Shown here piece by piece: positions 1,000 through 61,223 of a DNA stretch of 64,000 bases. Source of the DNA: Amphiscolops sp. MND2022 (lineage: Eukaryota); contig OZ076409.1 in NCBI GenBank assembly GCA_964187785.1, forward strand, positions 16,556,001 to 16,620,000, read 5' to 3'. The notes under the pieces are model-generated. The model made no database searches, was not told where the DNA came from, and worked only from the letters and a program-made list of their open reading frames with translations. Position 1 is the first letter of the stretch, and every line of letters starts with the position of its first letter. Made by a program: the position numbers and the translations under genes.

Positions 1000-1594
1000 G
1001 TCAGAAATGTGGTTTAACTTCGGTGACAGTTTTGCAAAAGGGGTCAAATTGAAAAGATAGCAAAAAACGGACAACGCCATTAGAAAGAGCGTCCAAAAAA
1101 ACCCCCATGCTGAAATTTTCGCCGCCATCACTTGAATTTTCATTGAGTTATGTCATTTTTACTATTTTCACAAAATGTGGTTTAACTTCGGTGACAGTTT
1201 TGCAAAAGGGGTCAAAATGAACAGATAGCAAAAAACGGACAACGGCATTGGAAAGAGGGCCCAAAATTACCCCTAAAACGTGTTTTTCACACTCCTGAGT
1301 CGACTTTTGATAATACATGGAATTTCATTTTTAAGCTTACTAATTTATGCTTTTCAGCATACATTTTCGTAAGAGTCAAAATTTTGCTTTCTCACAATTT
1401 TTCTGGAATATTTTTGTTTCATCAGATGTCAATAACTTGAAACGTCGTCTTTTCATGAGAATTTCTCCTCAAAACAAGTTGTTGGCTGGTAATGGTAAGT
1501 CCGTACCGCAGATAGGAGTCTCGCGCTCCAAAAATTGACTCTTTGCTTTTAGCCTAATTGTTGTGATAAACTTATTAAATAGGTAAGTATTCCA

Positions 1595-2486
1595 GGTATG
1601 GCCGGTGCGAGACGACCGAACCTACAGATTCTACCCGTGCAATGTCAGCATCAAGATTCAAAATGCCCTGCCCAATCTGACTAACGAAGAAATCAAGAAC
1701 GAACTGAAACTACCCGAAGGCATTACTGCGAACGACGACTTGAACTTCAAAACAGTCAGCATTGGGCCGTACATGAAAGTCTTTGATGGAACAGCGACAA
1801 TCTCTGCCACTGTTCAATCTGCCGAGCAAATGGAAGAAATGAAAAACTGGTCGCGCAAATCTTTCTTTGAAGAAAAACAAGTTAGAAATCAAGTGACTCA
1901 GATGTATGCTCCTAACATCATGACATGTACTTTCTGTGAAAAGAAAGGCTCCTTCTACAGAGGTCATGATGACACTTGGTGCACAAAGAAAACGAAAGAA
2001 GAACGCGAACTGGAAAAAAAAGCGAAGGCGATCGAAGACGAAGGCGACGTCTTCACAGCCGACGAACAAAGTGTACACAACGAACAAATCGCAAAAATCA
2101 GAAACGACAGCTGTGCATCAACATCAAGCAGAAATAATAAAAGACGACGCAGCACACCAAAGCGCGCCAACTCGGAAAAAAACCCACGACTCAGTGCGAG
2201 ACAGCGAACCAGCCAAATACCAAAGATGAAAGCAAAAGCTCAAAATGAGAACAAACCCGAACAGAAAGAAAGTACAAGTCAAACTGCAAACAACAACAGT
2301 GATAACAATGACGAGAATGAAGAACAAGATACCACAAGCACGAAGAACGCAGATACCGAAAACAGATTGCCGAAACCGCTGAACATGAGAGATTTTGTGG
2401 ATGCAATGAATCCAATCCATCACATAGAAACAAATGAAACAACAAACAACAACGTCAACGAAACAAACAATACGAAGACGAAATGA
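1595..2486 (+). pseudogene. 5'-truncated ORF1 of A1
   Basis: Matches the C-terminal ~295 aa of the 397-aa ORF1 at 56577; lacks the start codon. Confidence 0.9.
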
Positions 2487-5400
2487 CGATGCCCAACATT
2501 GTTAGTTTCAATTGTAGGGGTCTTGGCAATCCCTTGAAACTCACAAGCCTAATTGCAAATACTGACATCAACAATGACGTCATTGCAATTCAAGAAACTA
2601 AAATGAAAAAACTAAAGAAAAAACATTTGAAAATACTCGAGTCCTACGACCTGAATTACGTAATCAGCCCATGCGACAAATCAAAAGCGGGCGGCCTGCT
2701 GCTTTTGTTCAAAGCAAAACATAACGTAGAGCTGGTTACCCAAAACAAGTCTTTTCAAATTATAAAGATGTCAAACCAAGCCACTGAAACAAAGATGGCC
2801 AATGTTTACATATGCCCCAGTTGGAGTATAAGCAAAATCAATGAAGAACTTGAAGACCTGAAACTCAACTTGGAATCAAAGCATCTCAGGCATATTGAAC
2901 CATGTGTAATAGTTGGTGACTTGAATTGTTTCGATGACGTCACAAGAAACAAACATCCTCAATATGCAAAACACAAAGTCATACTGAAAGCGTTTGAAAA
3001 AATGGGCTTGATGGACATGGCAGTGAAGCTTGAGAATATCGAGAACACACACTTCGCGCCAGCCCAAAAACCATCGCGCCTGGATTATATCTTCTCAAAT
3101 GTTGTGAGTCAGAAACAAGAAATCAGAACGATCAAGACATGCTTCTCAGATCACCGAATTTTGCGCCTGTCAAGCAAGCATAAGGCCGAGCAAGGTCAAA
3201 AGATCTTTAGAATGGATGACACAACTGTTGATGAAAACGTCAAAACCCTGAAAACGCTGATTTCACAAACAAATGGCTTGACCGGTGAACAGCTAGCGAA
3301 TGATGCGTATCTCACAATGAAAAATGAAATTTCCAACTTTCTAAGACAGGCTAGCATATGGAGAGCAAGAAATAACAAAGACAGACTGCTCAAGGGGCCC
3401 GACGCAGAAGCTGAGCAGAATCTTGCAAAAAGAATGCTAGCAGCAGTGAAGGTCAAATGCACTGACCTGAATGAAGGAAACTTGAAGATTGTTAAAAAGT
3501 ACTGCTCTGACAATGCAAACAACCAAAGCAACGCGATCAAGAAGCTGAAAACACAGAAAGATCGAATTGTCTCAAGTGAGAATGAGATCATAGATGAGGT
3601 TACAAAGTACTACAGTAAGCTCTACGCCAACGAACCAATTGATGAGAAGAAACAAGAGTGCCTCATCACAAACTTCAAAAAACAGATCTCTGAAGATGAA
3701 AGAGAACGTCTAACTCAGCAAATCACCCTAGACGAAATCAAAAATGCGATTGACAATCTGAACAAAGAAAGCGCGCCAGGCCCAGATGGACTCACCCCAA
3801 AACTGTTTCAAACGTTCAAAGAAGAATTCAGTCTTATGTTTCAAAAGATGTTTGAACATGCTGCAGACGGTAACAACTTACCAATGGCATTCAACCAAGC
3901 CTTCATTAGACTACTTCCGAAAAGTGGTGATCTGACAACATTGAAGAACTGGAGACCAATAAGCCTGATCAACACTGACAGCAAGATTTTTTCAGCAGTA
4001 ATTGCAAACAGAATGAAAAGTAGCCTCCGCGAAATCATCCACCCAGATCAATGCGCATATTTGAAAGGCAGACAAATGTCAAACGCCACACTGCTACTAA
4101 AATCTCTGTGCACAAACAAAAGAATGAAAAAAACTTTGACACTAGCTGGACTCGACTTCAGCAAAGCCTTCGACAGGGTAGATCGTTCGTACTTGCTGAA
4201 ACTTATAAAACATGTGGGATTCCCTCCCAACATATACAACATGATAGAGCAACTGTACAAAGATACACGATCTAACGTTCTAGTCAACTCCTTCATCACA
4301 AGACGAATACAGCAAGAAAGAGGAGTGAAACAAGGCTGCCCAGTCTCAGCTCTTTTGTTCATCCTAGCTATTGAGCCATTGCTTGAACTACTGAGATCGT
4401 CATCGAGCCTGACTGGAATCGCAAAAGGAAAATTGAAGAAAAAAATCATTGCATATGCTGATGACGTCACAATGTTAGTTGAGAATGAAGAACAACTGAA
4501 GCAAGCAATTCAAACGGTTGAAGACTTTGGCAAAAGCACCCAATTCGCCTTGAACGCTGACAAAACGGAACAGTTTGACCTGAATCGAAGAAATGAAGAT
4601 CAAAAGATCAAACTCCTCGGTTTGTATTTGTTCAGCAACCAAAAAAGTGAAAAGCAGCACTACCAGCAACAACTGATCCAAGAAAGCGAAAGAGCAAAGA
4701 AAGTGTGTAGACCATCAATGTCGATGAAAACGAAAAGTTGCGTCATGAAAGCCTTCGTAATGCCAAAAATAGTGTTCCATGCGAAAGCCTCAAACTGTGA
4801 TCGAGCAACTTGGAAAAAAGTTCAACGAAACCTAAAACAAGGACTTCACAACAATAGGAGCAATCAGATTTCAGAACGCCTTCTTTTTCAAAGCACCAAT
4901 GAAGGCGGTGTTGGCTTCCCATGCGTGAAGACCTATGCAAGCACTTCTTTTCTGATGGATGTGTGGAGAGCAGTTTTCCACAATGACGATCACTTTATTG
5001 CACTCGAAATCAAAGAAGCAGTAGAAGACGAGAAAAGTTACGTTCACAGCAAACTGAAACAAATGAAAACGATAACGAAAGCGCGAGCGATAACTTTCAA
5101 GCGAGAACACATAGAGTTTGTGACAAGTGAAGGACTAACAAAAATCCCTGCTACTTCAAAAGCAATATACGCTTTTGCAATCCGCCGACAGCATGCAGAC
5201 TTCGTAGATGAAAGAATCATGAAAGCGGGATCAAAACTTCAAACATCACCCCAACAACTTCTGTACACACTCAAAGCAATTTGGAGAAGCAACAAATTGA
5301 ACCCTGTTCAACGAGACGTCTTCTATAATTTCAGTTTCAATCTTTACCGAGACAAAGTATTCCTCCATGCAGCTGGCTACAAGTCTGATGATGACTGTTT

Positions 5401-5650
5401 CCTTTGCGGAACAAGTAAACAAACACATGAGCATCTGATCCTAGATTGTCAAAAAACAAAGCAGATTGCTGAAACCCTTGGAATTCGCAGCATGAAAGAT
5501 CTGTACCAGCAGGCAGAACAAGACACATGGAAAAAAGTCAGATTCGTAACAACTCTGCTCATATGTTCATGGACCGACAACAAGCAAGAAGTGGAACAAA
5601 TGATTCACAACTTTCCCATCACTATCAAGCAAGTTGGCACAGTGGCTTAG
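2483..5650 (+). CDS. ORF2: APE endonuclease, reverse transcriptase and C-terminal CCHC finger (L1/Tx1-like), 1055 aa
   Basis: SFNCRGL, IQET, GDLN, SRLDY, SDH; PGPDG, WRPISLIN, DFSKAFD, GVKQGCP, YADD; CFLC..H..C. Confidence 0.97.
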   Translation: MTMPNIVSFNCRGLGNPLKLTSLIANTDINNDVIAIQETKMKKLKKKHLKILESYDLNYVISPCDKSKAGGLLLLFKAKHNVELVTQNKSFQIIKMSNQATETKMANVYICPSWSISKINEELEDLKLNLESKHLRHIEPCVIVGDLNCFDDVTRNKHPQYAKHKVILKAFEKMGLMDMAVKLENIENTHFAPAQKPSRLDYIFSNVVSQKQEIRTIKTCFSDHRILRLSSKHKAEQGQKIFRMDDTTVDENVKTLKTLISQTNGLTGEQLANDAYLTMKNEISNFLRQASIWRARNNKDRLLKGPDAEAEQNLAKRMLAAVKVKCTDLNEGNLKIVKKYCSDNANNQSNAIKKLKTQKDRIVSSENEIIDEVTKYYSKLYANEPIDEKKQECLITNFKKQISEDERERLTQQITLDEIKNAIDNLNKESAPGPDGLTPKLFQTFKEEFSLMFQKMFEHAADGNNLPMAFNQAFIRLLPKSGDLTTLKNWRPISLINTDSKIFSAVIANRMKSSLREIIHPDQCAYLKGRQMSNATLLLKSLCTNKRMKKTLTLAGLDFSKAFDRVDRSYLLKLIKHVGFPPNIYNMIEQLYKDTRSNVLVNSFITRRIQQERGVKQGCPVSALLFILAIEPLLELLRSSSSLTGIAKGKLKKKIIAYADDVTMLVENEEQLKQAIQTVEDFGKSTQFALNADKTEQFDLNRRNEDQKIKLLGLYLFSNQKSEKQHYQQQLIQESERAKKVCRPSMSMKTKSCVMKAFVMPKIVFHAKASNCDRATWKKVQRNLKQGLHNNRSNQISERLLFQSTNEGGVGFPCVKTYASTSFLMDVWRAVFHNDDHFIALEIKEAVEDEKSYVHSKLKQMKTITKARAITFKREHIEFVTSEGLTKIPATSKAIYAFAIRRQHADFVDERIMKAGSKLQTSPQQLLYTLKAIWRSNKLNPVQRDVFYNFSFNLYRDKVFLHAAGYKSDDDCFLCGTSKQTHEHLILDCQKTKQIAETLGIRSMKDLYQQAEQDTWKKVRFVTTLLICSWTDNKQEVEQMIHNFPITIKQVGTVA

Positions 5651-5939
5651 CCAAAGACCATGAGTCAAACAAACGAGGTTCGAACCTCTGACGGAACCAA
5701 GACACAAACATGAAAAAAACTCTTTTACCTTATTGTTTGAAAGGTAAGTATTCCAACCCTATTGATAAGTTTTATTTGAAAGCAGACTGCGAAAGTGGTC
5801 TGCTGCCCAATTTTTTGAACAAGGAACAAGCTAGTCTGCACTAACTTAAAAGTTACGCGTATTTTGACCGAGAAAATTTTCGTATCATTGTACGTAATTT
5901 TGTTGTTAAGCATATAAAGCTATTGATTTTACAATGATC

Positions 5940-6844: not shown

Positions 6845-6963
6845 GGCTACGACCATACCATGTTGAATGCACCGGTTCTCGTCCGATCACCGAAGTTAAA
6901 CAACATAGGGCCTGGTTAGTACTTGGATGGGAGACCGCTTGGGAACACCAGGTGTTGTAGCCT
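6845..6963 (+). rRNA. 5S rRNA
   Basis: As 876-994. Confidence 0.98.
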
Positions 6964-7749
6964 TTTTTGTCAGAAATGTGGTTTAACTTCAGTGACAGTT
7001 TTGCAAAAGGGGTCAAATTGAAAAGATAGCAAAAAACGGACAACGCCATTAGAAAGAGCGTCCAAAAAAACCCCCATGCTGAAATTTTCGCCGCCATCAC
7101 TTGAATTTTCATTGAGTTATGTCATTTTTACTATTTTCACAAAATGTGGTTTAACTTCGGTGACAGTTTTGCAAAAGGGGTCAAAATGAACAGATAGCAA
7201 AAAACGGACAACGGCATTGGAAAGAGGGCCCAAAATTACCCCTAAAACGTGTTTTTCACACTCCTGAGTCGACTTTTGATAATACATGGAATTTCATTTT
7301 TAAGCTTACTAATTTATGCTTTTCAGCATACATTTTCGTAATAGAGTCAAAATTTTGCTTTCTCACAATTTTTCTGGAATATTTTTGTTTCATCAGATGT
7401 CAATAACTTGAAACGTCGTCTTTTCATGAGAATTTCTCCTCAAAACAAGTTGTTGGCTGGTAATGGTAAGTCCGTACCGCAGATAGGAGTCTCGCGCTCC
7501 AAAAATTGACTCTTTGCTTTTAGCCTAATTGTTGTGATAAACTTATTAAATAGGTAAGTATTCCAACCCTATTGATAAGTTTTATTTGAAAGCAGACTGC
7601 GAAAGTGGTCTGCTGCCCAATTTTTTGAACAAGGAACAAGCTAGTCTGCACTAACTTAAAAGTTACGCGTATTTTGACCGAGAAAATTTTCGTATCATTG
7701 TACGTAATTTTGTTGTTAAGCATATAAAGCTATTGATTTTACAATGATC

Positions 7750-13298: not shown

Positions 13299-13880
13299 TT
13301 TTTGTCAGAAATGTGGTTTAACTTCGGTGACAGTTTTGCAAAAGGGGTCAAATTGAAAAGATAGCAAAAAACGGACAACGCCATTAGAAAGAGCGTCCAA
13401 AAAAACCCCCATGCTGAAATTTTCGCCGCCATCACTTGAATTTTCATTGAGTTATGTCATTTTTACTATTTTCACAAAATGTGGTTTAACTTCGGTGACA
13501 GTTTTGCAAAAGGGGTCAAAATGAACAGATAGCAAAAAACGGACAACGGCATTGGAAAGAGGGCCCAAAATTACCCCTAAAACGTGTTTTTCACACTCCT
13601 GAGTCGACTTTTGATAATACATGGAATTTCATTTTTAAGCTTACTAATTTATGCTTTTCAGCATACATTTTCGTAATAGAGTCAAAATTTTGCTTTCTCA
13701 CAATTTTTCTGGAATATTTTTGTTTCATCAGATGTCAATAACTTGAAACGTCGTCTTTTCATGAGAATTTCTCCTCAAAACAAGTTGTTGGCTGGTAATG
13801 GTAAGTCCGTACCGCAGATAGGAGTCTCGCGCTCCAAAAATTGACTCTTTGCTTTTAGCCTAATTGTTGTGAAAGCTTTG

Positions 13881-14070
13881 ATCCCTGAAGTCTGAGCCCT
13901 AGCCCCTTCAGTGGAACAGTTGACACCTCAAATAGTTTAAAAGCCACTGCGCCAGCTGTGATTTCTCTAGATCCCTGAAGTCGAGCCCTAGCCCCTGAGG
14001 TGGATCGAAAAATCAAAGCTGAGGGAGAAACTGGCTGTATCCCTGAAGTCGAGCCCTAGCCCCTTCAGTG
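13881..14070 (+). repeat. Three copies of ATCCCTGAAGTC(T)GAGCCCTAGCCCCT in family B 5'UTR
   Basis: At ~13881, 13971 and 14039; also present in B2 at ~46672-46860. Confidence 0.9.
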
Positions 14071-14136
14071 CGATCGTTGGTGGAGACCCCCGCTTTTTGC
14101 AACTTTTTTTACCCGCTTTTTTCATAAAACCTCAAA

Positions 14137-15557
14137 ATGCCTCCTAAAAACTTCCTAGAAACAGCCTCTAGCAAAAAGAAATTTGAATCTTATAAACAAG
14201 GATCGAGAAGAAACTCAACATCAAATCTAACATCAAACATACCCAACCCTGAAGGTAAATATAACGGACCAGCTGAACGAAATCGTCTTTTGAAAGAAAA
14301 GGAAGAAGAAGAACAGAGAAAACTGAAGATTGACAAAATGATTGAAGAGACAAGGGAGGAATTTCCACCGATAGAAGGTTCCAGCAAACCACAATCACCA
14401 CAGCCTAAAAGCCAACAACAGCATGAAATACAAAACGAACAACGCCCAAAACAACAGCAGCTTCAACCTCAGCCCGACATTAGTAACAGCCAAAACAGCT
14501 ACAGTAATGCTGTCTGTAATCAAAAAACGTAGTCGTAAACAAAATCTTCCGGTTGAAAATTGTACCTCTTTTTCGCAAAGAACATTTCGAAAACAAAAAT
14601 GCCCTCGAAACTGAGATAGCAAAAGCTTATGCTGAAATCCTAAAACCATTCAAACCTCAAGTGCGAATGTACATTACAATTTCGAGAACTATTGAAGAAA
14701 AATGGGGAAAACGACTTCACATTTTACATGTAACTGCCCCTGAAGAAGCGGAAGAAGACATCGAAAACATTAAAACTAAAGGTTTACAAATAATGGGCAG
14801 AACAGTATTTCCAACTGGAGACGATTTTTACCAAGTTCGTAATAGTCAATTTCCCCGAAAAGTGTGGGTAAAGATTAACAATTTGCCGTTTCTTTGCAGC
14901 GATGAAGTTTTACTCAGTCTACTAGACCTCCCAGAAGGAGTTGAGATTAGTGAAAATGTAACAAGAGAAACGATACAAACTGAAAATGGCACCATCCACA
15001 ACGGAAAGGCTAAACTGTCAGTTGTGGTCCCAGACAGTGAAAAACTCAAAGAACTCAAACAGTGGTCTTTGGAGAAAAGTCACATTTGCGTCACAAAATG
15101 GTTCGAAATTCCGATTTATATGTCGACCCCAAGCCTGCACAAATGTGACGCTTGTGAAAAAGAAAATCGGAAATCGTACATTGGCCACGACATAGCGTGG
15201 TGCAGGGTTTTAAGGAAACCTGAAAAAACTGAGGAAGCTCCCGAAAGCTGCCAAGAAGAAACAGCGGACGAGTCACAAGCTGAACAAGAAAACGAAGTAT
15301 GGGCTGACGCACCAACAAAATCCTTTCCAAACACAAACAAAAAGAACAAGAAAAGATCGAAGTCGAAATCCAAAGAGACCACCAGCCCTGGATTGATGCA
15401 GCAGAATAAATTTCAGCTTCTTTCTACATCCAGTGACCAACCTGAAGCAATTCTAAGCGCAACGTCAACAATACAAGTCCAGCCACCAAATCCAAAGAAC
15501 CCGCAGCACCCGGAAACGCCCTGTGAAGCACCCCTGGAAAGAAGCGACCATGGATGA
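14137..15557 (+). pseudogene. ORF1 of B1, frameshifted
   Basis: A6 at 14522-14527 versus A7 in B2 splits the 473-aa ORF1 into 14137-14532 and 14553-15557; could be a homopolymer sequencing error. Confidence 0.8.
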
Positions 15558-18500: not shown

Positions 18501-18876
18501 GAACATCTGGAAAAACAAAAAACTCACTTCGTTTGATAAAAACTATCTTTACTGCTTCCTAATGAACTCGTATCTAGATAAACAGGACAAGTGGCTTAAA
18601 AATCTTGTTCTCCAACCACTATGTTTCGCATGTGAAGCAGAATTTGAAACATGGGACCATTTAATGTTTTCGTGTAAAAAATTGAAAACGTTAACAATGA
18701 AGTTAAACGTTTTTTCATGGAAGGAAATATGGCTTGATCGAAGTTGTCTCTCTCGAAAACTCCTTGTAGCAATAATGCTCTCGTCGTGGACGGAATCAAT
18801 TGGAGACTACTTAAAATATTTTCTAGAACGAATGAAAGTAATACTAATACCAGTTGCAAATCTATCTGATAATTGA
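15550..18876 (+). CDS. ORF2 of B1: APE, RT and CCHC finger
   Basis: ATG at 15550 (MDEEIEIFSINARGL) as in B2; IQET, GGDFN, SRIDY, SDH, PGSDG, DFSKAFD, GVRQGCP, YADD, CFAC..H..C. Confidence 0.97.
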   Translation: MDEEIEIFSINARGLASNKSKLIEICNIVKKNKKHETFYVLIQETKLEKMKPELLKIIQYNNLSFQIVPSENKSGGLMILYDKNTEIELLDKNQCSLTIRDKKSDSIIINTYVNPKQYNFQPLKDTIETLELTCDQTIYMGGDFNAIDPSDINEENKTFNMTVKSNDIRLLRSKKLIHLNSSLLLIDLAQLLQNRQPTHFETRSGKQSRIDYIFSNNQNLTIEKNRIETLPFAFSDHKCLHLFRNSNYQYSQKLWKLDNIVFNYPEKVKEILETSKVASEKFGNIVSCHDIFKAKLRDQLKYFSATSRKMLVKQKEKIQMDIEKLEENCSKGNCSDQQIKQNLEHLTCLKNNLQLIKNEESENSFQQIKNFFREANDGNTKNIKCLAKASSLAKDIKKIEKQDGSFTEDPDEILNEFKSFYEKLSQPKWKPTETSSKSQDKFIEKFFKQKRKSIENIEKLFKETLEDPDNEITVYEVEKAISKLNSNSAPGSDGLTSQLYQNHKNFFAPYLSNLFNKINENGEVPDSFKHAIIKVIPKKNNSLKVSEFRPISLINTDQKILSHVLAERLKPILSILIGNHQNAHLPNRNIHIAIQKIQHYAHETTRSQSLIAIDFSKAFDCVERSFLQKLIEKSPIDKFTQEMILLTYKDTYAFIGMKNGISTKFKIDRGVRQGCPLSALIFNLCLEPLLQRIQKSKYIKSKQQTKCIAYADDITISLYNKSLRKLLIILDHFHEIAGLEVNLAKTEILSKADKLFVSEKLTRVTTTKILGVYISLNKTLKKETKNAITNAFNSAEKFILKNSSFRARARNIETFIYSKLIHHLRHENLYKKFLRKVQSKIIDVFWLYKKHNVKKEILELPIEEGGVNLKNFSKYYLTAKIMNLKFLAVNPKERKYIQELKKSKFFSELEKHFEKEHIEILELKPEEFTIQHHFTTLNITKETTSKEIYTFLNNSSINVPPSLKTEVTATKQNIASEILNSVTKNIWKNKKLTSFDKNYLYCFLMNSYLDKQDKWLKNLVLQPLCFACEAEFETWDHLMFSCKKLKTLTMKLNVFSWKEIWLDRSCLSRKLLVAIMLSSWTESIGDYLKYFLERMKVILIPVANLSDN

Positions 18877-46089: not shown

Positions 46090-46663
46090 TTTTTGTCAGA
46101 AATGTGGTTTAACTTCGGTGACAGTTTTGCAAAAGGGGTCAAATTGAAAAGATAGCAAAAAACGGACAACGCCATTAGAAAGAGCGTCCAAAAAAACCCC
46201 CATGCTGAAATTTTCGCCGCCATCACTTGAATTTTCATTGAGTTATGTCATTTTTACTATTTTCACAAAATGTGGTTTAACTTCGGTGACAGTTTTGCAA
46301 AAGGGGTCAAAATGAACAGATAGCAAAAAACGGACAACGGCATTGGAAAGAGGGCCCAAAATTACCCCTAAAACGTGTTTTTGACACTCCTGAGTCGACT
46401 TTTGATAATACATGGAATTTCATTTTTAAGCTTACTAATTTATGCTTTTCAGCATACATTTTCGTAATAGAGTCAAAATTTTGCTTTCTCACAATTTTTC
46501 TGGAATATTTTTGTTTCATCAGATGTCAATAACTTGAAACGTCGTCTTTTCATGAGAATTTCTCCTCAAAACAAGTTGTTGGCTGGTAATGGTAAGTCCG
46601 TACCGCAGATAGGAGTCTCGCGCTCCAAAAATTGACTCTTTGCTTTTAGCCTAATTGTTGTGA

Positions 46664-49600
46664 AAGCTTTGATCCCTGAAGTCTGAGCCCTAGCCCCTTC
46701 AGTGGAACAGTTGACACCTCAAATAGTTTAAAAGCCACTGCGCCAGCTGTGATTTCTCTAGATCCCTGAAGTCGAGCCCTAGCCCCTGAGGTGGATCGAA
46801 AAATCAAAGCTGAGGGAGAAACTGGCTGTATCCCTGAAGTCGAGCCCTAGCCCCTTCAGTGCGATCGTTGGTGGAGACCCCCGCTTTTTGCAACTTTTTT
46901 TTTACCCGCTTTTTTCATAAAACCTCAAAATGCCTCCTAAAAACTTCCTAGAAACAGCCTCTAGCAAAAAGAAATTTGAATCTTATAAACAAGGATCGAG
47001 AAGAAACTCAACATCAAATCTAACATCAAATATACCCAACCCTGAAGGTAAATATATCGGACCAGCTGAACGAAATCGTCTTTTGAAAGAAAAGGAAGAA
47101 GAAGAACAGAGAAAACTGAAGATTGACAAAATGATTGAAGATACAAGAGAAGAATTTCCACCGTTAGAAGGTTCCAGCAAACCACAATCACCACAGCCTA
47201 AAAGCCAACAACAGCATGAAATACAAAACGAACAACGCCCAAAACAACAGCAGCCTCAACCTCAGCCCGACATTAGTAACAGTCAAAACAGCTACAGTAA
47301 TGTTGTCTGTAATCAAAAAAACGTAGTCGTTAACAAAATCTTCCGATTGAAAATTGTACCTCCTTTTCGCAAAGAACATTTCGAAAACAAAAATGCCCTC
47401 GAAACTGAGATAGCAAAAGCTTATGCTGAAATCCTAAAACCATTCAAACCTCAAGTGCGAATGTACATTACAATTTCGAGAACTTTTGAAGAAAAATGGG
47501 GAAAACGACTTCACATTTTACATGTAACTGCCCCTGAAGAAGCGGAAGAAGACATCGAAAACATTAAAACTAAAGGTTTACAAATAATGGGCAGAACAGT
47601 ATTTCCAACTGGAGACGATTTTTACCAAGTTCGTAATAGTCAATTTCCCCGGAAAGTGTGGGTAAAGATTAACAATTTGCCGTTTCTTTGCAGCGATGAA
47701 GTTTTACTCAGTCTACTAGACCTCCCAGAAGGAGTTGAGATTAGTGAAAATGTAACAAGAGAAACGATACAAACTGAAAATGGCACCATCCACAACGGAA
47801 AGGCAAAACTGTCAGTTGTGGTCCCAGACAATGAAAAACTCAAAGAACTCAAACAGTGGTCTTTGGAGAAAAGTCACATTTGCGTCACAAAATGGTTCGA
47901 AATTCCGATTTATATGTCGACCCCAAGCCTGCACAAATGTGACGCTTGTGAAAAAGAAAATCGGAAATCGTACATTGGCCACGACATAGCGTGGTGCAGG
48001 GTTTTAAGGAAACCTGAAAAAACTGAGGAAGCTCCCGAAAGCTGCCAAGAAGAATCAGCGGACGAGTCACAAGCTGAACAAGAAAACGAAGTATGGGCTG
48101 ACGCACCAACAAAATCCTTTCCAAACACAAACAAAAAGAACAAGAAAAGATCGAAGTCGAAATCCAAAGAGACCACCAGCCCTGGATTGATGCAGCAGAA
48201 TAAATTTCAGCTTCTTTCTACATCCAGTGACCAACCTGAAGCAGTTCTAAGCGCAACGTCAACAATACAAATCCAGCCACCAAATCCAAAGAACCCGCAG
48301 CACCCGGAAACGCCCTGTGAAGCACCCCTAGAAAGAAGCGACCATGGATGAAGAAATAGAAATTTTTTCAATTAATGCTAGAGGGTTAGCCTCAAATAAA
48401 TCAAAATTAATTGAGATTTGCAACATTGTTAAGAAAAATAAAAAACATGAAACATTTTATGTACTGATACAAGAGACTAAGCTGGAAAAAATGAAACCGG
48501 AACTTCTTAAAATAATTCAATATAACAATTTGTCTTTTCAAATAGTTCCCTCAGAAAATAAAAGTGGAGGTCTAATGATACTTTATGATAAAAACACCGA
48601 AATAGAATTACTTGACAAGAACCAATGTTCCCTAACAATTCGAGACAAAAAATCGGATTCAATAATTATAAATACTTATGTGAATCCAAAACAGTACAAT
48701 TTTCAGCCTCTCAAAGATACTATTGAAACACTAGAACTAACATGTGATCAAACTATTTATATGGGAGGTGATTTCAATGCCATCGATCCTTCAGATATCA
48801 ATGAAGAAAACAAAACGTTCAATATGACTGTAAAATCAAATGATATTCGACTATTGCGATCCAAAAAACTAATACATTTGAACTCAAGTCTCCTTTTGAT
48901 AGATCTTGCGCAACTCTTACAGAATCGCCAACCAACGCATTTTGAAACACGGTCTGGAAAACAAAGCCGCATCGATTATATTTTTAGTAATAACCAAAAT
49001 CTCACCATCGAAAAAAACAGGATCGAAACATTGCCCTTTGCTTTTTCCGACCACAAATGCCTCCACCTTTTTCGAAATAGCAACTATCAGTATTCTCAAA
49101 AACTTTGGAAGCTCGATAACATTGTATTTAACTATCCGGAGAAAGTGAAGGAAATACTAGAAACATCTAAAGTCGCATCCGAAAAATTTGGGAACATTGT
49201 GTCTTGTCATGATATCTTTAAAGCGAAATTAAGAGATCAACTAAAATACCTTAGTGCTGCAAGCAGAAAGATGCTAGTGAAACAAAAAGAAAAAATTCAG
49301 ATGGATATTGAAAAACTTGAAGAAAATGGTTCTAAAGGAAATTGTTCTGACCAACAGCTCAAACAGAACTTAGAGCACCTGACATGCCTCAAAAATAATC
49401 TTCAATTGATCAAAAATGAAGAATCTGAAAATTCATTTCAACAAATCAAAAACTTCTTCAGGGAAGCCAATGATGGAAACACAAAAAATATCAAATGCTT
49501 AGCAAAAGCCTCAAGCTTAGCTAAGGATATCAAAAAGATTGAAAAACAAGATGGATCATTCACAGAAGATCCTGACGAAATTTTAAATGAATTCAAATCT

Positions 49601-50724
49601 TTTTATGAGAAACTTAGCCAACCAAAATGGAAACCAACAGAAACATCCTCGAAATCTCAGGATAAATTCATTGAAAAGTTTTTTAAACAAAAAAGGAAAA
49701 GCATTGAAAACATTGAAAAATTGTTCAAAGAAACGTTGGAGGACCCCGACAACGAAATCACAGTATATGAAGTTGAAAAAGCTATCTCTAAACTGAACTC
49801 AAACAGTGCTCCTGGATCGGATGGACTTACAAGTCAATTATACCAAAACCACAAAAACTTTTTTGCCCCGTATCTTTCAAATCTATTTAATAAAATCAAT
49901 GAAAATGGAGAAGTTCCGGACTCATTTAAACATGCAATCATCAAAGTAATTCCTAAGAAGAATAATTCACTGAAGGTATCCGAATTTCGGCCAATTAGTC
50001 TCATTAATACGGATCAAAAAATTCTTTCTCATGTTCTAGCAGAAAGACTTAAACCTATTTTATCAATATTAATTGGTAATCATCAAAACGCTCATTTACC
50101 AAATAGAAATATACACATTGCCATACAAAAAATTCAGCATTACGCCCATGAAACTACTCGTAGTCAATCACTTATCGCTATTGACTTCAGTAAAGCTTTC
50201 GACTGTGTAGAGCGTAGCTTTTTACAAAAACTGATTGAAAAAAGTCCAATCGATAAATTTACTCAAGAAATGATTTTACTTACGTACAAGGATACTTATG
50301 CTTTCATTGGAATGAAAAATGGAATTTCCACAAAATTCAAAATAGATAGAGGGGTGAGACAAGGCTGTCCTCTCTCAGCATTGATTTTCAATCTTTGCCT
50401 CGAACCTCTTCTACAAAGACTTCAAAAATCAAAATACATAAAATCAAAACAACAAACAAAATGTATCGCCTACGCAGATGATATAACGATCAGCCTCTAC
50501 AACAAATCTCTTCGGAAGCTATTGATAATATTGGATCATTTTCACGAAATAGCAGGCTTAGAAGTTAATTTAGCCAAAACTGAAATCCTTTCGAAAGCGG
50601 ACAAATTATTTGTATCGGAAAAACTAACAAGAGTTACCACAACAAAAATTCTTGGAGTTTACATTTCGCTGAATAAAACTCTCAAAAAAGAAACCAAGAA
50701 CGCGATAACGAATGCTTTTAACTC
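46664..50724 (+). mobile_element. Family B copy B2, 5'-complete and 3'-truncated
   Basis: Same 5' junction as B1 (target 46648-46663); element stops inside ORF2 at ...TTTTAACTC|AGCCTAATT (50725). Confidence 0.93.
46930..48351 (+). CDS. ORF1 of B2, 473 aa, intact
   Basis: Uninterrupted ORF; CDACEKENRKSYIGHDIAWC motif. Confidence 0.92.
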   Translation: MPPKNFLETASSKKKFESYKQGSRRNSTSNLTSNIPNPEGKYIGPAERNRLLKEKEEEEQRKLKIDKMIEDTREEFPPLEGSSKPQSPQPKSQQQHEIQNEQRPKQQQPQPQPDISNSQNSYSNVVCNQKNVVVNKIFRLKIVPPFRKEHFENKNALETEIAKAYAEILKPFKPQVRMYITISRTFEEKWGKRLHILHVTAPEEAEEDIENIKTKGLQIMGRTVFPTGDDFYQVRNSQFPRKVWVKINNLPFLCSDEVLLSLLDLPEGVEISENVTRETIQTENGTIHNGKAKLSVVVPDNEKLKELKQWSLEKSHICVTKWFEIPIYMSTPSLHKCDACEKENRKSYIGHDIAWCRVLRKPEKTEEAPESCQEESADESQAEQENEVWADAPTKSFPNTNKKNKKRSKSKSKETTSPGLMQQNKFQLLSTSSDQPEAVLSATSTIQIQPPNPKNPQHPETPCEAPLERSDHG

Positions 50725-55595: not shown

Positions 55596-56576
55596 TTTTT
55601 GTCAGAAATGTGGTTTAACTTCGGTGACAGTTTTGCAAAAGGGGTCAAATTGAAAAGATAGCAAAAAACGGACAACGCCATTAGAAAGAGCGTCCAAAAA
55701 AACCCCCATGCTGAAATTTTCGCCGCCATCACTTGAATTTTCATTGAGTTATGTCATTTTTACTATTTTCACAAAATGTGGTTTAACTTCGGTGACAGTT
55801 TTGCAAAAGGGGTCAAAATGAACAGATAGCAAAAAACGGACAACGGCATTGGAAAGAGGGCCCAAAATTACCCCTAAAACGTGTTTTTCACACTCCTGAG
55901 TCGACTTTTGATAATACATGGAATTTCATTTTTAAGCTTACTAATTTATGCTTTTCAGCATACATTTTCGTAATAGAGTCAAAATTTTGCTTTCTCACAA
56001 TTTTTCTGGAATATTTTTGTTTCATCAGATGTCAATAACTTGAAACGTCGTCTTTTCATGAGAATTTCTCCTCAAAACAAGTTTTTGGCTGGTAATGGTA
56101 AGTCCGTACCGCAGATAGGAGTCTCGCGCTCCAAAAATTGACTCTTTGCTTTTAGCCTAATTGTTGTGATAAACTTATTAAAAAGTCCTTTTAATAAGTT
56201 TGCTTGTACATCATTCGGTTAAGCAACCCATAGCTCTGTGCTATCATTCAAACTACCATTTTACAAACCCGTCGTGAAGCACCTAAGAAGCCATTCTTTC
56301 CTACGGGGGTCGCTGGCTAAGGTTTGATCTGCGTGGATTTTTTTCCAACCGGCTCGTGTGTGGTCGCGTTAGTAGATCAAGCTGAGAAACGGAGACTGGT
56401 GCTTCCCAGCGTATTCGTGAGGTTGCGCTGAAGCTTTCTTGGCGGTCGGCTGGCAGGAGCCCTCAATAAACTGCCAGTTGTCCCAGCAGAGCTCTTCACA
56501 GCTGGCAGTGATAGATGCTCTGTTTCCCCCTAAAAACAAAACAACTCTTTCCCTTTTATTTCAACTGAACTGAAGA

Positions 56577-57770
56577 ATGGATTACGCAGCAGCAGCAAAA
56601 TCAAGCGAAACAACAGAAGACTACCTCCCCCCACTTCTGTTTGTACTTCCAATCACTAAAGAAGATTTCAACACTCCGAACGGAATTACTGACATCTTCG
56701 TTAAACTCTGTACGACACTCTTAGCAAAACTACCATGTGAGGCTAGAACGAAAACGGTCATCCAACGAGTCTCATACGGATTCAAGAAATTGAAGGCAGT
56801 CAAAGTAAACTTGCCAACTTCATGTCAAAACGTACAAAACGAAATGCTCGGCATGGGGCTAGAATGTGGGAACAAAACGGTATGGCCGGTGCGAGACGAC
56901 CGAACCTACAGATTCTACCCGTGCAATGTCAGCATCAAGATTCAAAATGCCCTGCCCAATCTGACTAACGAAGAAATCAAGAACGAACTGAAACTACCCG
57001 AAGGCATTACTGCGAACGACGACTTGAACTTCAAAACAGTCAGCATTGGGCCGTACATGAAAGTCTTTGATGGAACAGCGACAATCTCTGCCACTGTTCA
57101 ATCTGCCGAGCAAATGGAAGAAATGAAAAACTGGTCGCGCAAATCTTTCTTTGAAGAAAAACAAGTTAGAAATCAAGTGACTCAGATGTATGCTCCTAAC
57201 ATCATGACATGTACTTTCTGTGAAAAGAAAGGCTCCTTCTACAGAGGTCATGATGACACTTGGTGCACAAAGAAAACGAAAGAAGAACGCGAACTGGAAA
57301 AAAAAGCGAAGGCGATCGAAGACGAAGGCGACGTCTTCACAGCCGACGAACAAAGTGTACACAACGAACAAATCGCAAAAATCAGAAACGACAGCTGTGC
57401 ATCAACATCAAGCAGAAATAATAAAAGACGACGCAGCACACCAAAGCGCGCCAACTCGGAAAAAAACCCACGACTCAGTGCGAGACAGCGAACCAGCCAA
57501 ATACCAAAGATGAAAGCAAAAGCTCAAAATGAGAACAAACCCGAACAGAAAGAAAGTACAAGTCAAACTGCAAACAACAACAGTGATAACAATGACGAGA
57601 ATGAAGAACAAGATACCACAAGCACGAAGAACGCAGATACCGAAAACAGATTGCCAAAACCGCTGAACATGAGAGATTTTGTGGATGCAATGAATCCAAT
57701 CCATCACATAGAAACAAATGAAACAACAAACAACAACGTCAACGAAACAAACAATACGAAGACGAAATGA
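56577..57770 (+). CDS. ORF1 of A2, 397 aa
   Basis: Intact ORF; CTFCEKKGSFYRGHDDTWC motif; basic/low-complexity C-terminus. Confidence 0.92.
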   Translation: MDYAAAAKSSETTEDYLPPLLFVLPITKEDFNTPNGITDIFVKLCTTLLAKLPCEARTKTVIQRVSYGFKKLKAVKVNLPTSCQNVQNEMLGMGLECGNKTVWPVRDDRTYRFYPCNVSIKIQNALPNLTNEEIKNELKLPEGITANDDLNFKTVSIGPYMKVFDGTATISATVQSAEQMEEMKNWSRKSFFEEKQVRNQVTQMYAPNIMTCTFCEKKGSFYRGHDDTWCTKKTKEERELEKKAKAIEDEGDVFTADEQSVHNEQIAKIRNDSCASTSSRNNKRRRSTPKRANSEKNPRLSARQRTSQIPKMKAKAQNENKPEQKESTSQTANNNSDNNDENEEQDTTSTKNADTENRLPKPLNMRDFVDAMNPIHHIETNETTNNNVNETNNTKTK

Positions 57771-60700
57771 CGACGCCCAACATTGTTAGTTTCAATTGTA
57801 GGGGTCTTGGCAATCCCTTGAAACTCACAAGCCTAATTGCAAATACTGACATCAACAATGACGTCATTGCAATTCAAGAAACTAAATTGAAAAAACTAAA
57901 GAAAAAACATTTGAAAATACTCGAGTCCTACGACCTGAATTACGTAATCAGCCCATGCGACAAATCAAAAGCGGGCGGCCTGCTGCTTTTGTTCAAAGCA
58001 AAACATAACGTAGAGTTGGTTACCCAAAACAAGTCTTTTCAAATTATAAAGATGTCAAACCAAGCCACTGAAACAAAGATGGCCAATGTTTACATATGCC
58101 CCAGCTGGAGTATAAGCAAAATCAATGAAGAACTTGAAGACCTGAAACTCAACTTGGAATCAAAGCATCTCAGGCATATTGAACCATGTGTAATAGTTGG
58201 TGACTTGAATTGTTTCGATGACGTCACAAGAAACAAACATCCTCAATATGCAAAACACAAAGTTATACTGAAAGCGTTTGAAAAAATGGGCTTGATGGAC
58301 ATGGCAGTGAAGCTTGAGAATATCGAGAACACACACTTCGCGCCAGCCCAAAAACCATCGCGCCTGGATTATATCTTCTCAAATGTTGTGAGTCAGAAAC
58401 AAGAAATCAGAACGATCAAGACATGCTTCTCAGATCACCGAATTTTGCGCCTGTCAAGCAAGCATAAGGCCGAGCAAGGTCAAAAGATCTTTAGAATGGA
58501 TGACACAACTGTTGATGAAAACGTCAAAACCCTGAAAACGCTGATTTCACAAACAAATGGCTTGACCGGTGAACAGCTAGCGAATGATGCGTATCTCACA
58601 ATGAAAAATGAAATTTCCAACTTTCTAAGACAGGCTAGCATATGGAGAGCAAGAAATAACAAAGACAGACTGCTCAAGGGGCCCGACGCAGAAGCTGAGC
58701 AGAATCTTGCAAAAAGAATGCTAGCAGCAGTGAAGGTCAAATGCACTGACCTGAATGAAGGAAACTTGAAGATTGTTAAAAAGTACTGCTCTGACAATGC
58801 AAACAACCAAAGCAACGCGATCAAGAAGCTGAAAACACAGAAAGATCGAATTGTCTCAAGTGAGAATGAGATCATAGATGAAGTTACAAAGTACTACAGT
58901 AAGCTCTACGCCAACGAACCAATTGATGAGAAGAAACAAGAGTGCCTCATCACAAACTTCAAAAAACAGATCTCTGAAGATGAAAGAGAACGTCTAACTC
59001 AGCAAATCACCCTAGACGAAATCAAAAATGCGATTGACAATCTGAACAAAGAAAGCGCGCCAGGCCCAGATGGACTCACCCCAAAACTGTTTCAAACGTT
59101 CAAGGAAGAATTCAGTCTTATGTTTCAAAAGATGTTTGAACATGCTGCAGACGGTAACAACTTACCAATGGCATTCAACCAAGCCTTCATTAGACTACTT
59201 CCGAAAAGTGGTGATCTGACAACATTGAAGAACTGGAGACCAATAAGCCTGATCAACACTGACAGCAAGATTTTTTCAGCAGTAATTGCAAACAGAATGA
59301 AAAGTAGCCTCCGCGAAATCATCCACCCAGATCAATGCGCATATTTGAAAGGCAGACAAATGTCAAACGCCACACTGCTACTAAAATCTCTGTGCACAAA
59401 CAAAAGAATGAAAAAAACTTTGACACTAGCTGGACTCGACTTCAGCAAAGCCTTCGACAGGGTAGATCGTTCGTACTTGCTGAAACTTATAAAACATGTG
59501 GGATTCCCTCCCAACATATACAACATGATAGAGCAACTGTACAAAGATACACGATCTAACGTTCTAGTCAACTCCTTCATCACAAGACGAATACAGCAAG
59601 AAAGAGGAGTGAAACAAGGCTGCCCAGTCTCAGCTCTTTTGTTCATCCTAGCTATTGAGCCATTGCTTGAACTACTGAGATCGTCATCGAGCCTGACTGG
59701 AATCGCAAAAGGAAAATTGAAGAAAAAAATCATTGCATATGCTGATGACGTCACAATGTTAGTTGAGAATGAAGAACAACTGAAGCAAGCAATTCAAACG
59801 GTTGAAGACTTTGGCAAAAGCACCCAATTCGCCTTGAACGCTGACAAAACGGAACAGTTTGACCTGAATCGAAGAAATGAAGATCAAAAGATCAAACTCC
59901 TCGGTTTGTATTTGTTCAGCAACCAAAAAAGTGAAAAGCAGCACTACCAGCAACAACTGATCCAAGAAAGCGAAAGAGCAAAGAAAGTGTGTAGACCATC
60001 AATGTCGATGAAAACGAAAAGTTGCGTCATGAAAGCCTTCGTAATGCCAAAAATAGTGTTCCATGCGAAAGCCTCAAACTGTGATCGAGCAACTTGGAAA
60101 AAAGTTCAACGAAACCTAAAACAAGGACTTCACAACAATAGGAGCAATCAGATTTCAGAACGCCTTCTTTTTCAAAGCACCAATGAAGGCGGTGTTGGCT
60201 TCCCATGCGTGAAGACCTATGCAAGCACTTCTTTTCTGATGGATGTGTGGAGAGCAGTTTTCCACAATGACGATCACTTTATTGCACTCGAAATCAAAGA
60301 AGCAGTAGAAGACGAGAAAAGTTACGTTCACAGCAAACTGAAACAAATGAAAACGATAACGAAAGCGCGAGCGATAACTTTCAAGCTAGAACACATAGAG
60401 TTTGTGACAAGTGAAGGACTAACAAAAATCCCTGCTACTTCAAAAGCAATATACGCCTTTGCAATCCGCCGACAGCATGCAGACTTCGTAGATGAAAGAA
60501 TCATGAAAGCGGGATCAAAACTTCAAACATCACCCCAACAACTTCTGTACACACTCAAAGCAATTTGGAGAAGCAACAAACTGAACCCTGTTCAACGAGA
60601 CGTCTTCTATAATTTCAGTTTCAATCTTTACCGAGACAAAGTATTCCTCCATGCAGCTGGCTACAAGTCTGATGATGACTGTTTCCTTTGCGGAGCAAGT

Positions 60701-60934
60701 AAACAAACACATGAGCATCTGATCCTAGATTGTCAAAAAACAAAGCAGATTGCTGAAACCCTTGGAATTCGCAGCATGAAAGATCTGTACCAGCAGGCAG
60801 AACAAGACACATGGAAAAAAGTGAGATTCGTAACAACTCTGCTCATATGTTCATGGACCGACAACAAGCAAGAAGTGGAACAAATGATTCACAACTTTCC
60901 CATCACTACCAAGCAAGTTGGCACAGTGGCTTAG
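57767..60934 (+). CDS. ORF2 of A2: APE, RT and CCHC finger, 1055 aa
   Basis: Same motifs as A1 ORF2 with only a handful of substitutions. Confidence 0.97.
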   Translation: MTTPNIVSFNCRGLGNPLKLTSLIANTDINNDVIAIQETKLKKLKKKHLKILESYDLNYVISPCDKSKAGGLLLLFKAKHNVELVTQNKSFQIIKMSNQATETKMANVYICPSWSISKINEELEDLKLNLESKHLRHIEPCVIVGDLNCFDDVTRNKHPQYAKHKVILKAFEKMGLMDMAVKLENIENTHFAPAQKPSRLDYIFSNVVSQKQEIRTIKTCFSDHRILRLSSKHKAEQGQKIFRMDDTTVDENVKTLKTLISQTNGLTGEQLANDAYLTMKNEISNFLRQASIWRARNNKDRLLKGPDAEAEQNLAKRMLAAVKVKCTDLNEGNLKIVKKYCSDNANNQSNAIKKLKTQKDRIVSSENEIIDEVTKYYSKLYANEPIDEKKQECLITNFKKQISEDERERLTQQITLDEIKNAIDNLNKESAPGPDGLTPKLFQTFKEEFSLMFQKMFEHAADGNNLPMAFNQAFIRLLPKSGDLTTLKNWRPISLINTDSKIFSAVIANRMKSSLREIIHPDQCAYLKGRQMSNATLLLKSLCTNKRMKKTLTLAGLDFSKAFDRVDRSYLLKLIKHVGFPPNIYNMIEQLYKDTRSNVLVNSFITRRIQQERGVKQGCPVSALLFILAIEPLLELLRSSSSLTGIAKGKLKKKIIAYADDVTMLVENEEQLKQAIQTVEDFGKSTQFALNADKTEQFDLNRRNEDQKIKLLGLYLFSNQKSEKQHYQQQLIQESERAKKVCRPSMSMKTKSCVMKAFVMPKIVFHAKASNCDRATWKKVQRNLKQGLHNNRSNQISERLLFQSTNEGGVGFPCVKTYASTSFLMDVWRAVFHNDDHFIALEIKEAVEDEKSYVHSKLKQMKTITKARAITFKLEHIEFVTSEGLTKIPATSKAIYAFAIRRQHADFVDERIMKAGSKLQTSPQQLLYTLKAIWRSNKLNPVQRDVFYNFSFNLYRDKVFLHAAGYKSDDDCFLCGASKQTHEHLILDCQKTKQIAETLGIRSMKDLYQQAEQDTWKKVRFVTTLLICSWTDNKQEVEQMIHNFPITTKQVGTVA

Positions 60935-61223
60935 CCAAAGACCATGAGTCAAACAAACGAGGTTCGAACCTCTGACGGAACCAAGACACAAACATGAAAA
61001 AAACTCTTTTACCTTATTGTTTGAAAGGTAAGTATTCCAACCCTATTGATAAGTTTTATTTGAAAGCAGACTGCGAAAGTGGTCTGCTGCCCAATTTTTT
61101 GAACAAGGAACAAGCTAGTCTGCACTAACTTAAAAGTTACGCGTATTTTGACCGAGAAAATTTTCGTATCATTGTACGTAATTTTGTTGTTAAGCATATA
61201 AAGCTATTGATTTTACAATGATC

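Follow-up and report, generated by a model that had tools for sequence, protein, structure and literature searches.

CRE1, CRE2, SLACS and CZAR of trypanosomatids, which are grouped with NeSL-1 of nematodes, share with it an insertion site in the exon of tandem spliced-leader (SL) RNA genes; all of them insert in sense and are believed to be driven by the SL promoter. These elements belong to early-branching clades and encode a C-terminal restriction-like endonuclease (RLE) of the PD-(D/E)xK type (PMC4640811; this and the other articles are cited from excerpts of their full texts). Target-specific elements with an apurinic/apyrimidinic (AP)-type endonuclease (APE) are placed in two clades, Tx1 and R1; target-specific retrotransposons of other kinds have an RLE, and NeSL is the SL-specific lineage that is named in the excerpts (PMC4640811, PMC8869645). 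The targets given for Tx1 are U2, U5, 5S, satellites, microsatellites and transposons (PMC4494074), and Keno inserts 37 nt into U2 (PMC6136364). Here we analyzed a stretch of 64,000 nucleotides from the acoel Amphiscolops sp. MND2022 (the window; contig OZ076409.1, here C1:16556001-16620000, within a 1.07-Gb assembly), an array of SL RNA genes linked to 5S rRNA genes that holds six insertions. In contrast to the C-terminal RLE of the trypanosomatid and nematode elements, the coding families among these insertions have an N-terminal, AP-type endonuclease. We consider it very likely that they are autonomous long interspersed nuclear elements (LINEs) of the L1 group that integrate by target-primed reverse transcription (TPRT) into the acoel SL gene, and that are probably transcribed from the SL start.

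Six insertions in a spliced-leader RNA gene

The array itself was recognized by its 5S genes. An Rfam scan found 46 of them in the window, all on the + strand, and among 44 start-to-start intervals 37 measured 905 bp, one 904 bp and six between 1014 and 6015 bp. Downstream of the 5S gene and a spacer, the unit contains a 31-nt exon, GCCTAATTGTTGTGATAAACTTATTAAATAG, followed by GTAAGT, a strong hairpin and the Sm-like site AAUUUUUUG. The exon (unit 679-709) matches letter for letter the trans-spliced leader of Symsagittifera roscoffensis, GCCTAATTG…AAATAG, which was reconstructed from transcripts (excerpts of PMC9911081), and so points to that species or a near relation of it as the source animal. 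The SL RNA is predicted to fold at -29.5 kcal/mol (z -3.45), with the 3' part of the exon paired with the intron as stem I and a hairpin upstream of AAUUUUUUG. None of the SL families of Rfam matched the unit at gathering or permissive thresholds, which is expected because the SL is lineage-specific. A GU donor, an Sm-like site amid stem-loops and a tandem, multicopy layout are all present, with about 1136 SL-gene candidates genome-wide in a first-look search. The target is a genuine SL RNA gene, linked to 5S.

Insertions were mapped by blastn of the 905-bp unit consensus against the window and by reading of the junctions. Six of the 44 units are interrupted, five by LINEs of families A, B and C and one by a short element of family D. 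All junctions fall in unit 678-721, i.e., within 44 bp, and the 3' junctions use two sites only: unit 678, at the first nucleotide of the leader (SL +1; top strand GCTTTT^AGCCTAATTG), and unit 708, in the final two nucleotides of the exon next to the splice donor (TTAAAT^AGGTAAGT), each uncertain by one base as the junction A may be assigned to either side. The chance that six random hits fall within 44 of 905 bp is about 1e-8, with orientation and site reuse uncounted. The element 3' ends read …TTGTTTGAA in A and D, …ATTTTTGAA in B and …TTCTTTAAA in C; no poly(A) tail was found on the window elements, which end in a T-rich motif closing with RAA or AGA instead.

The individual copies differ in their completeness. 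Insertions 1 and 3 are flanked by a 14-bp target-site duplication (TSD), AGGTAAGTATTCCA, which corresponds to unit 708-721. Insertion 1 begins at nt 697 of insertion 6 and is 99.66% identical to it; insertion 6 has no TSD, has lost 1-2 target bases and is directly preceded by SL nt 1-28. Insertions 2 and 5 are both preceded by the string AGCCTAATTGTTGTGAAAGCTT. A 23-bp TSD of family B, which these copies offer at face value, was dismissed, since the bases in question travel with the element at copies outside the SL gene. Insertion 5 is 99.1% identical to insertion 2 and lacks its last 1036 bp, so that its ORF2 runs into the SL exon and stops there (window 50690-50731); the breakpoint, …GCTTTTAACTC|AGC…, has AGC in common with the target. 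This break lies in element sequence that resembles the target GCTTTT|AGCC, and the 3' loss could be due to internal priming or to a deletion between two nick sites. The first open reading frame (ORF1) is open over 334 aa in insertion 2, as compared to 473 aa in insertion 5.

An earlier note, made from the letters of the window without database searches, had described the insertions as clustered in about 45 bp of the unit, all in sense orientation and none in the 5S gene or the spacer. The junction mapping bears this out: the orientation is sense to the SL gene in six of six. Its description of intact ORFs and near-identical copies needs correction in detail: insertion 1 is 5'-truncated, insertion 5 has lost its 3' end and the ORF1 of insertion 2 is shortened.

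Table 1. Positions of the host unit, the six insertions and related loci. Numbers without a contig or locus are window positions; the junction column gives the last unit position on the left and the first on the right.
Feature	Position	Strand	Junctions (left / right)	Remarks
Reference intact host unit, 905 bp	6845..7749	+		5S gene, spacer, SL RNA gene; unit consensus
5S rRNA gene of reference unit	6845-6963	+		Rfam 5S, 117.5 bits
SL exon, 31 nt (unit 679-709)	7523..7553	+		Identical to published S. roscoffensis SL (PMC9911081)
GTAAGT donor (unit 710)	7554	+		Directly 3' of SL exon
SL RNA body	ends ~7640	+		Stem-loops and Sm-like site; fold prediction
Insertion 1, family A	1595..5741	+	721 / 708	5'-truncated; donor site
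Insertion 1, ORF1 remnant	1605-2486	+		
Insertion 1, ORF2	2483-5650	+		
Insertion 2, family B	13857..18966 (with leader); body 13879-18966	+	700 / 678	SL +1
Insertion 2, leader	13857-13878	+		22 nt, SL-derived
Insertion 2, ORF1	14553-15557	+		Open only here
Insertion 2, ORF2	15523-18876	+		First ATG 15550
Insertion 3, family D	27156..27250	+	721 / 708	95 bp; donor site
Insertion 4, family C	35380..40312	+	691 / 678	SL +1; unit 678-691 on both sides
Insertion 4, ORF1	35597-36928	+		
Insertion 4, ORF2	36870-40160	+		First ATG 36909
Insertion 5, family B	46648..50724 (with leader); body 46670-50724	+	700 / 678	SL +1
Insertion 5, ORF1	46930-48351	+		Intact
Insertion 5, ORF2	48344-50731	+		
Insertion 6, family A	56183..61025	+	706 / 708	Full length; donor site
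Insertion 6, ORF1	56577-57770	+		
Insertion 6, ORF2	57767-60934	+		
U2 family (L017, L019)	C5:28.06 Mb, C4:81.09 Mb; L019:1-7100			In 717-bp U2 small nuclear RNA (snRNA) tandem array; ORF2 1130 aa
U1 family (L023)	C3:17.10 Mb		U1 nt 6/7 (ATACTT^ACCTGG)	5-bp TSD; ORF2 1083 aa; tandem copies 4843 bp apart
L022				Adjoins U5 snRNA genes
L013, L014, L015, L018, L021				Adjoin or lie in tRNA genes or tRNA-like sequence; A-rich 3' tails, unlike SL families

Proteins, families and genome-wide placement

Families A, B and C each encode ORF1 and an overlapping ORF2. The three ORF2 proteins (P0001, P0002 and P0003) contain an N-terminal Exo_endo_phos domain (PF03372) and RVT_1 (PF00078), a reverse transcriptase (RT) domain, both above the Pfam cut-offs, whereas zf-RVT reached 18-22.6 bits, below its cut-off of 27.5 bits; a C-x2-C…H…C motif is readable at the C-terminus. 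Likewise readable are QETK, GD(F/L)N and SDH in the endonuclease and YADD in the RT, which we take to be the catalytic signatures of these enzymes. The best solved relative is human L1 ORF2p, which aligns with residues 14-887 of P0002 (E=1e-55). Pfam gave no restriction-like endonuclease in the ORF2s, whose C-terminal region holds the putative Cys/His motif alone. Since they combine an N-terminal AP-type endonuclease with an alignment to L1 ORF2p, the likeness of the acoel elements to CRE, SLACS, CZAR and NeSL is convergence, not kinship. In the ORF1 proteins neither Transposase_22 nor RRM nor any other Pfam domain was found with E as high as 1, and the classical CX2CX4HX4C knuckle is absent from them; they have a C-x2-C-x10-11-H-x5-C motif in common.

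Copies of the families were searched for in the entire assembly, with about 40 of the best candidates scored per search, and the counts that follow are lower bounds biased to well-preserved copies. For family A, 39 of 46 scored rows were at least 95% identical to P0001, and all 39 lie in SL arrays or on SL-flanked small contigs (C1:16.47-16.62 Mb, C12:56.14-56.61 Mb, C13:13.10-13.29 Mb and five small contigs); 29 of them are full-length ORF2s with no stops. The 3' ends of family A were SL-flanked in 36 of 36 scored rows, 35 of which continue through the whole 100-bp flank, with the remaining one breaking off after 17 bp, in front of a D element. All 22 scored ORF2 rows of family C (at least 98% identity) are in arrays or on small contigs, and its 5' junctions are identical and seamless into the SL flank in 19 of 19.

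The searches with P0002 and P0003 uncovered further ORF2 lineages. Thirty loci were fetched, 11 of them in SL arrays, and by ORF2 identity these comprise, in addition to B and C, families E, F, G, H (=K), I (=J) and C'. In all 12 further array insertions the right junction is unit 678, and the left junction, where it falls inside the locus (n=11), ends at unit 693-695. Thus at least eight coding families (B, C, C', E, F, G, H and I) insert at SL +1, and A and D at the donor, which gives at least nine coding families at two sites in three diverged arrays, with host units that differ by about 6-7%. The hallmarks of TPRT are present, namely 5' truncations at various points, TSDs (14-18 bp) and an invariant 3' junction; family A copies are truncated at ORF2 residues 54, 73, 114, 299, 467 and 701. 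Family A copies are 99-100% identical across arrays, while the units of the C12 and C13 arrays are 92-94% identical to the C1 unit, and the elements therefore moved between arrays after the arrays had diverged. This movement, together with the many truncation points, argues against mere co-amplification.

The earlier note had also described the elements themselves. Its three families, each with ORF1 and an APE-RT-CCHC ORF2, stand as far as the ORF1, APE and RT of A, B and C are concerned, with a putative Cys/His motif in the place of the CCHC; insertion 3 belongs to a separate, non-coding family. The protein sequences are indeed very different, with ORF2 identities of 24-32% among A, B and C, and the L1-like assignment was borne out at the level of the L1 group by the match to human L1 ORF2p. 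The genome-wide mapping that the note had proposed as a check supports targeting (39 of 39 scored ORF2 rows in arrays for A, 22 of 22 for C), and the diversification it saw goes beyond the three families in the window, to at least nine coding families and one short one.

The short one, family D, is non-coding and is represented in the window by the 95-bp insertion 3. Its 3' end, CTTACTGTTTGAA, resembles that of family A, but the two share only the last 13 nt (CTTAYTGTTTGAA). The best 40 of 47 genomic candidates were scored, giving 12 complete 95-bp copies with at least 98% identity, 19 relatives of 111-113 bp at 73-75% and 9 fragments of 41 bp. All eight loci that were read are at the donor site and SL-flanked, with TSDs of 14-17 bp; one stands directly after an A copy and one in a degenerate solo SL gene on C2. 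Insertion 3 was also considered as a truncated A copy and this was dismissed, D being a multi-copy family of its own by the loci read. Because D and A have their last 13 nt in common, D may be a non-autonomous rider on the machinery of A.

Some loci have a more complex history. At SL +1 in L001 (oriented 7864-9484), a 1.6-kb composite consists of an element with a 388-aa ORF, SL nt 678-695 and the last ~26 nt of family E, and gives the impression that one site was hit twice in succession; similar second insertions occur in L008 and L009. A copy of the A 5' junction with 89% identity lies outside the main arrays at C5:70349125-70352730 and may represent an A insertion in an SL gene that was dispersed long ago. 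The 5' untranslated region (UTR) of family C contains a 19-bp tandem repeat of 2.1 copies (35527-35567), the sole Tandem Repeats Finder match in the window.

Relatives of the SL elements and comparison with known targets

The remaining 19 of the 30 fetched loci are outside SL arrays, and several of them are in or beside other small-RNA genes (Table 1). The family in the U2 array has its 3' junction after U2 nt 18 (CCTTTT^GGCTAAGATCA); its insertions occur in tandem and have an 11-bp TSD. U1 begins with 10 nt (ATACTTACCT), the part in which the U1 family inserts, that match the SL donor region, the site of family A, in reverse complement.

A quick IQ-TREE analysis of 41 ORF2s placed all rows from this genome together with five database proteins in one clade of 21 rows (Shimodaira-Hasegawa-like approximate likelihood ratio test, SH-aLRT, 100), apart from vertebrate, plant, fungal and other database rows. 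The clade includes the families in U2, in U1 and beside U5 and tRNA genes. Among the database proteins, P0008 is near-identical to the U1 family and P0011 to B, P0013 is sister to C', P0007 is 44% identical to A and P0009 has no close partner; P0007, P0009 and P0013 are on short contigs in public data, and other species may harbor related elements. Within the clade, A is basal and U5 and U1 come next; the node after them, which is unresolved, joins U2, the C group and the tRNA-associated lineage paired with B-E-F-G-H-I (SH-aLRT 99). The Xenopus protein P0101, a relative of the vertebrate rows, is 36-37% identical to L1-like proteins of the rat and other rodents, and for that reason the vertebrate rows are probably true L1. 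The acoel elements belong to the L1 group, as a clade of their own with a habit of targeting small-RNA genes, this placement being made relative to L1-like rows, none of them labelled Tx1.

Two routes to the SL gene can be read from these data. The SL +1 site GCTTTT^AGCCTAA resembles the site CCTTTT^GGCTAAG of the sister family in U2, and SL targeting may accordingly have come from U2 targeting by a small shift. A single exclusive clade of the site-678 families costs 32 log-likelihood units and is rejected (approximately unbiased (AU) test, p=0.001; the tree was a quick one, and the group was named after it had been seen). The alternative that follows from this rejection is that SL targeting is ancestral and was lost in the tRNA-associated lineage.

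The trait that the acoel clade shares with Tx1-type elements, insertion into multicopy RNA genes, is directly seen in the SL gene and, for the sister families, in U2, in U1 and beside U5 and tRNA genes. In comparison with Tx1L, Keno (U2), Mutsu (5S), Dewa (tRNA arrays), Kibi and Koshi (microsatellites) and Tx1-Mar, both groups have ORF1 and an APE-RT ORF2, and they are alike in their precise sense insertion into multicopy small-RNA genes and in their short TSDs. Co-transcription with the target is discussed for Tx1-type elements too (PMC4494074), whereas the SL gene is absent from the Tx1 targets listed in the excerpts (PMC4494074, PMC4640811). Keno inserts further into U2, at nt 37 (PMC6136364), than the acoel U2 family at nt 18/19, which is therefore not its site-equivalent, and the SL families are not in U2 at all. 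Targeting of this kind is a known habit of APE-type elements, to which the SL gene is added as a new target.

Two further comparisons place the elements more closely. R1 and R2 elements of rDNA depend on transcription of their target, have precise 3' and more variable 5' junctions and, in full-length copies, are joined through upstream target sequence (PMC4494074), in all of which the acoel elements appear alike; R1 and R2, however, target 28S rDNA and belong to other clades, and the acoel host promoter would be that of an Sm-class small RNA gene. With vertebrate and plant L1 they share the order APE-RT, with a putative Cys/His motif after it, and a putative nick at a pyrimidine^A step followed by A/T, and differ in the lack of poly(A), in the strict site preference, in an ORF1 without Transposase_22 or RRM and in a position outside the L1 rows.

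Leader, target recognition and alternative explanations

Full-length copies carry a piece of the SL itself at their 5' end, which is best seen at copies outside the SL gene (off-target copies). Those read were four of family B (L024, L025, L026 and L030), two of E (L002 and L003) and three of F (L005, L011 and L012). All five full-length ones (L024, L025, L026, L011 and L012) have an SL-derived leader that starts between unit 676 and 686, and among the four of family B it is present at least in part in three. The leader reads (TT)AGCCTAATTGTTGTGAAAGCTT in B and TCCTAATTGTTGTGAT or CTAATAGTTGTGAT in F; its SL portion is 14-17 nt in the SL +1 families and 28/31 nt in family A. Since it is found at sites without an SL gene, the leader travels with the RNA.

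For family A, the 5' junction was searched with a query of 60 bp of flank and 200 bp of element. Eighteen rows have a seamless SL-element junction, and in nine the element-attached part begins within the flank, at query 30-34 (unit 676-680) in seven of the nine. In five of the seven a second native flank copy, ending at unit 702-709, lies 14-39 bp upstream on the same strand. This layout is as expected for cDNA of an RNA that starts at SL +1 and was inserted at the donor with a TSD, and suggests such an origin.

From these observations a cycle can be proposed. The endonuclease would nick the bottom strand at a T^A step, recognizing at least the downstream AGCC(T), and integration into the SL RNA gene would proceed by TPRT. 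The 3' side of the off-target B, E and F copies abuts AGCC, AGCT or GGCC, often after a run of T, and the scored off-target alignments of these families extend 2-7 nt beyond the element end; from such flanks the endonuclease seems to need little beyond the T^A step and GCC(T). A sense insertion would keep the SL promoter upstream and intact, and the element would consequently be transcribed from SL +1, as a chimera of SL leader and element. An SL-derived leader that begins at about SL +1 suggests just such transcription from the SL promoter. With this leader the element RNA may acquire a 5' end like that of host mRNAs after trans-splicing, and a cDNA end complementary to the leader could pair with the target and produce a seamless 5' junction.

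A number of observations weigh against this reading. Among scored 3' ends, 8 of 13 reach the SL flank in family B (at least 91% identity) and 5 are off target, with 5 and 5 of 10 in family F and 4 and 2 of 6 in family E; the site-678 families are not absolutely SL-specific, and most copies of an older F-like family (75-79% identical) lie elsewhere than in SL genes. The TSD and duplicated leader of family A were derived from coordinates only, and three of the five cases contain an additional 12-24 bases that the layout does not explain. The family B leader, GTGAAAGCTT, differs from the native SL, GTGATAAACTT, in every copy, and such fixed differences mean that the leader is inherited and not re-acquired in each cycle, so that there would be scope for an internal promoter. 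In two off-target B copies TT or TTTT stands ahead of the leader, which could mean a start upstream of +1, and inspection by eye revealed no promoter element common to the SL, U2 and U5 genes. The co-transcription of the elements, their type of cap and their translation are deduced from sequence, and the genome-wide counts share the bias toward well-preserved copies.

The explanation that survives best beside transcription from the SL start is that the elements have an internal promoter of their own and that the SL leader is the fossil of an old TSD absorbed into the element. The fixed differences of the B leader and the long 5' UTRs of 217-394 bp speak for it, but the leaders start at unit 676-686 and never with promoter-proximal sequence, those of F and A are native in sequence, and all insertions are sense, which an internal promoter would not require. 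We consider this explanation unlikely.

It is rather improbable, in our estimate, that the site is chosen mainly by base-pairing of element RNA or cDNA with the target, with a minor endonuclease that needs only a T^A beside AGCC. Such pairing would agree with the off-target sites, which have only about 5 nt in common, with the 18 A copies whose 5' junctions are seamless, homology-like and free of a TSD, and with the 3'-truncated insertion 5, whose junction is an AGC microhomology. The elements end in …TTTGAA or …TTTAAA, however, and such ends are unable to pair with the primer …AGGCT-3', the leaderless, 5'-truncated copies (insertions 1 and 3) are still exactly at the site, and A and C have zero off-target rows among those scored.

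A quite different doubt concerns novelty, namely that the families are SL-specific but already catalogued as a Tx1 or L1 entry of Repbase or Dfam, or in another paper. Target-specific Tx1 families routinely enter Repbase without a paper. Acoel genomes have also been public since 2019-2022 (PMC9911081). Nevertheless, we hold a re-discovery to be quite unlikely: neither an APE-type SL-specific element nor a paper on acoel non-LTR (long terminal repeat) elements of this kind was found in the full-text literature, Repbase and Dfam entries not being covered, NeSL is the sole SL lineage named in the excerpts from 2015 and 2022 (PMC4640811, PMC4494074, PMC8869645), candidate papers that came up contain no report of such insertions, and the acoel genome paper does not mention them in the available parts of its main text or supplement text (PMC9911081). 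On this full-text basis, what is new is the SL gene as a target of site-specific APE LINEs, while site-specific APE LINEs and SL targeting by RLE elements are both known.

That there is no targeting, and that chance insertions were multiplied by unequal crossing-over and concerted evolution, is extremely improbable: some copies do stand at unit-multiple spacing (D at C1:16486778, 16488694, 16489706 and 16491622) and the arrays do homogenize (37 near-identical units), but at least nine families, 24-66% identical, occupy the same two nucleotide positions, elements 99-100% identical occur across three arrays with 6-7% unit divergence, the many distinct 5' truncation points argue against co-amplification, and even the off-target copies abut AGCC, AGCT or GGCC.

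Beyond integration by TPRT and probable transcription from the SL start, a fuller history can be outlined: an undescribed radiation of acoel AP-endonuclease LINEs with at least nine coding families and one short rider family divided between the two ends of the exon, would have colonized the SL gene independently of the RLE elements, would borrow the SL promoter and have its RNA, headed by the leader and presumably its cap, pass for trans-spliced mRNA, with the leader guiding the 5' junction, and its SL targeting would either have shifted from U2 or be ancestral. We regard this combination as possible, leaning slightly against it as a whole. The SL gene was formerly known as a niche of RLE elements of kinetoplastids and nematodes only; its use by an AP-endonuclease lineage in an early-branching bilaterian shows that two unrelated machineries have each reached it. 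Nine or more diverged endonucleases at two positions, with sisters that cut U1 and U2, form a natural series for the evolution of APE specificity, which bears on programmable site-specific insertion. The leaders suggest a route by which a LINE in a trans-splicing animal could reach a translatable 5' end, a borrowed SL promoter, and with 6 of the 44 SL genes in the window interrupted, the elements may affect the supply of SL RNA.

The host array shows some further features. Every unit contains, in the spacer between the 5S and SL genes, a direct duplication of about 100 bp with 92% identity (unit 130-230 and 298-398; for example, 6974-7074 and 7142-7242). Tandem Repeats Finder was run with a maximum period of 500, and hence did not report the 905-bp array. 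Other SL/5S arrays are at C1:15.32-15.47 Mb, a block in opposite orientation about 1 Mb from the window, at C12:56.01-56.66 Mb and at C13:13.10-13.33 Mb; the units of C13 and C1185 differ in spacer structure. The degenerate solo SL gene on C2, at 4.99 Mb, carries both D and F-like insertions.

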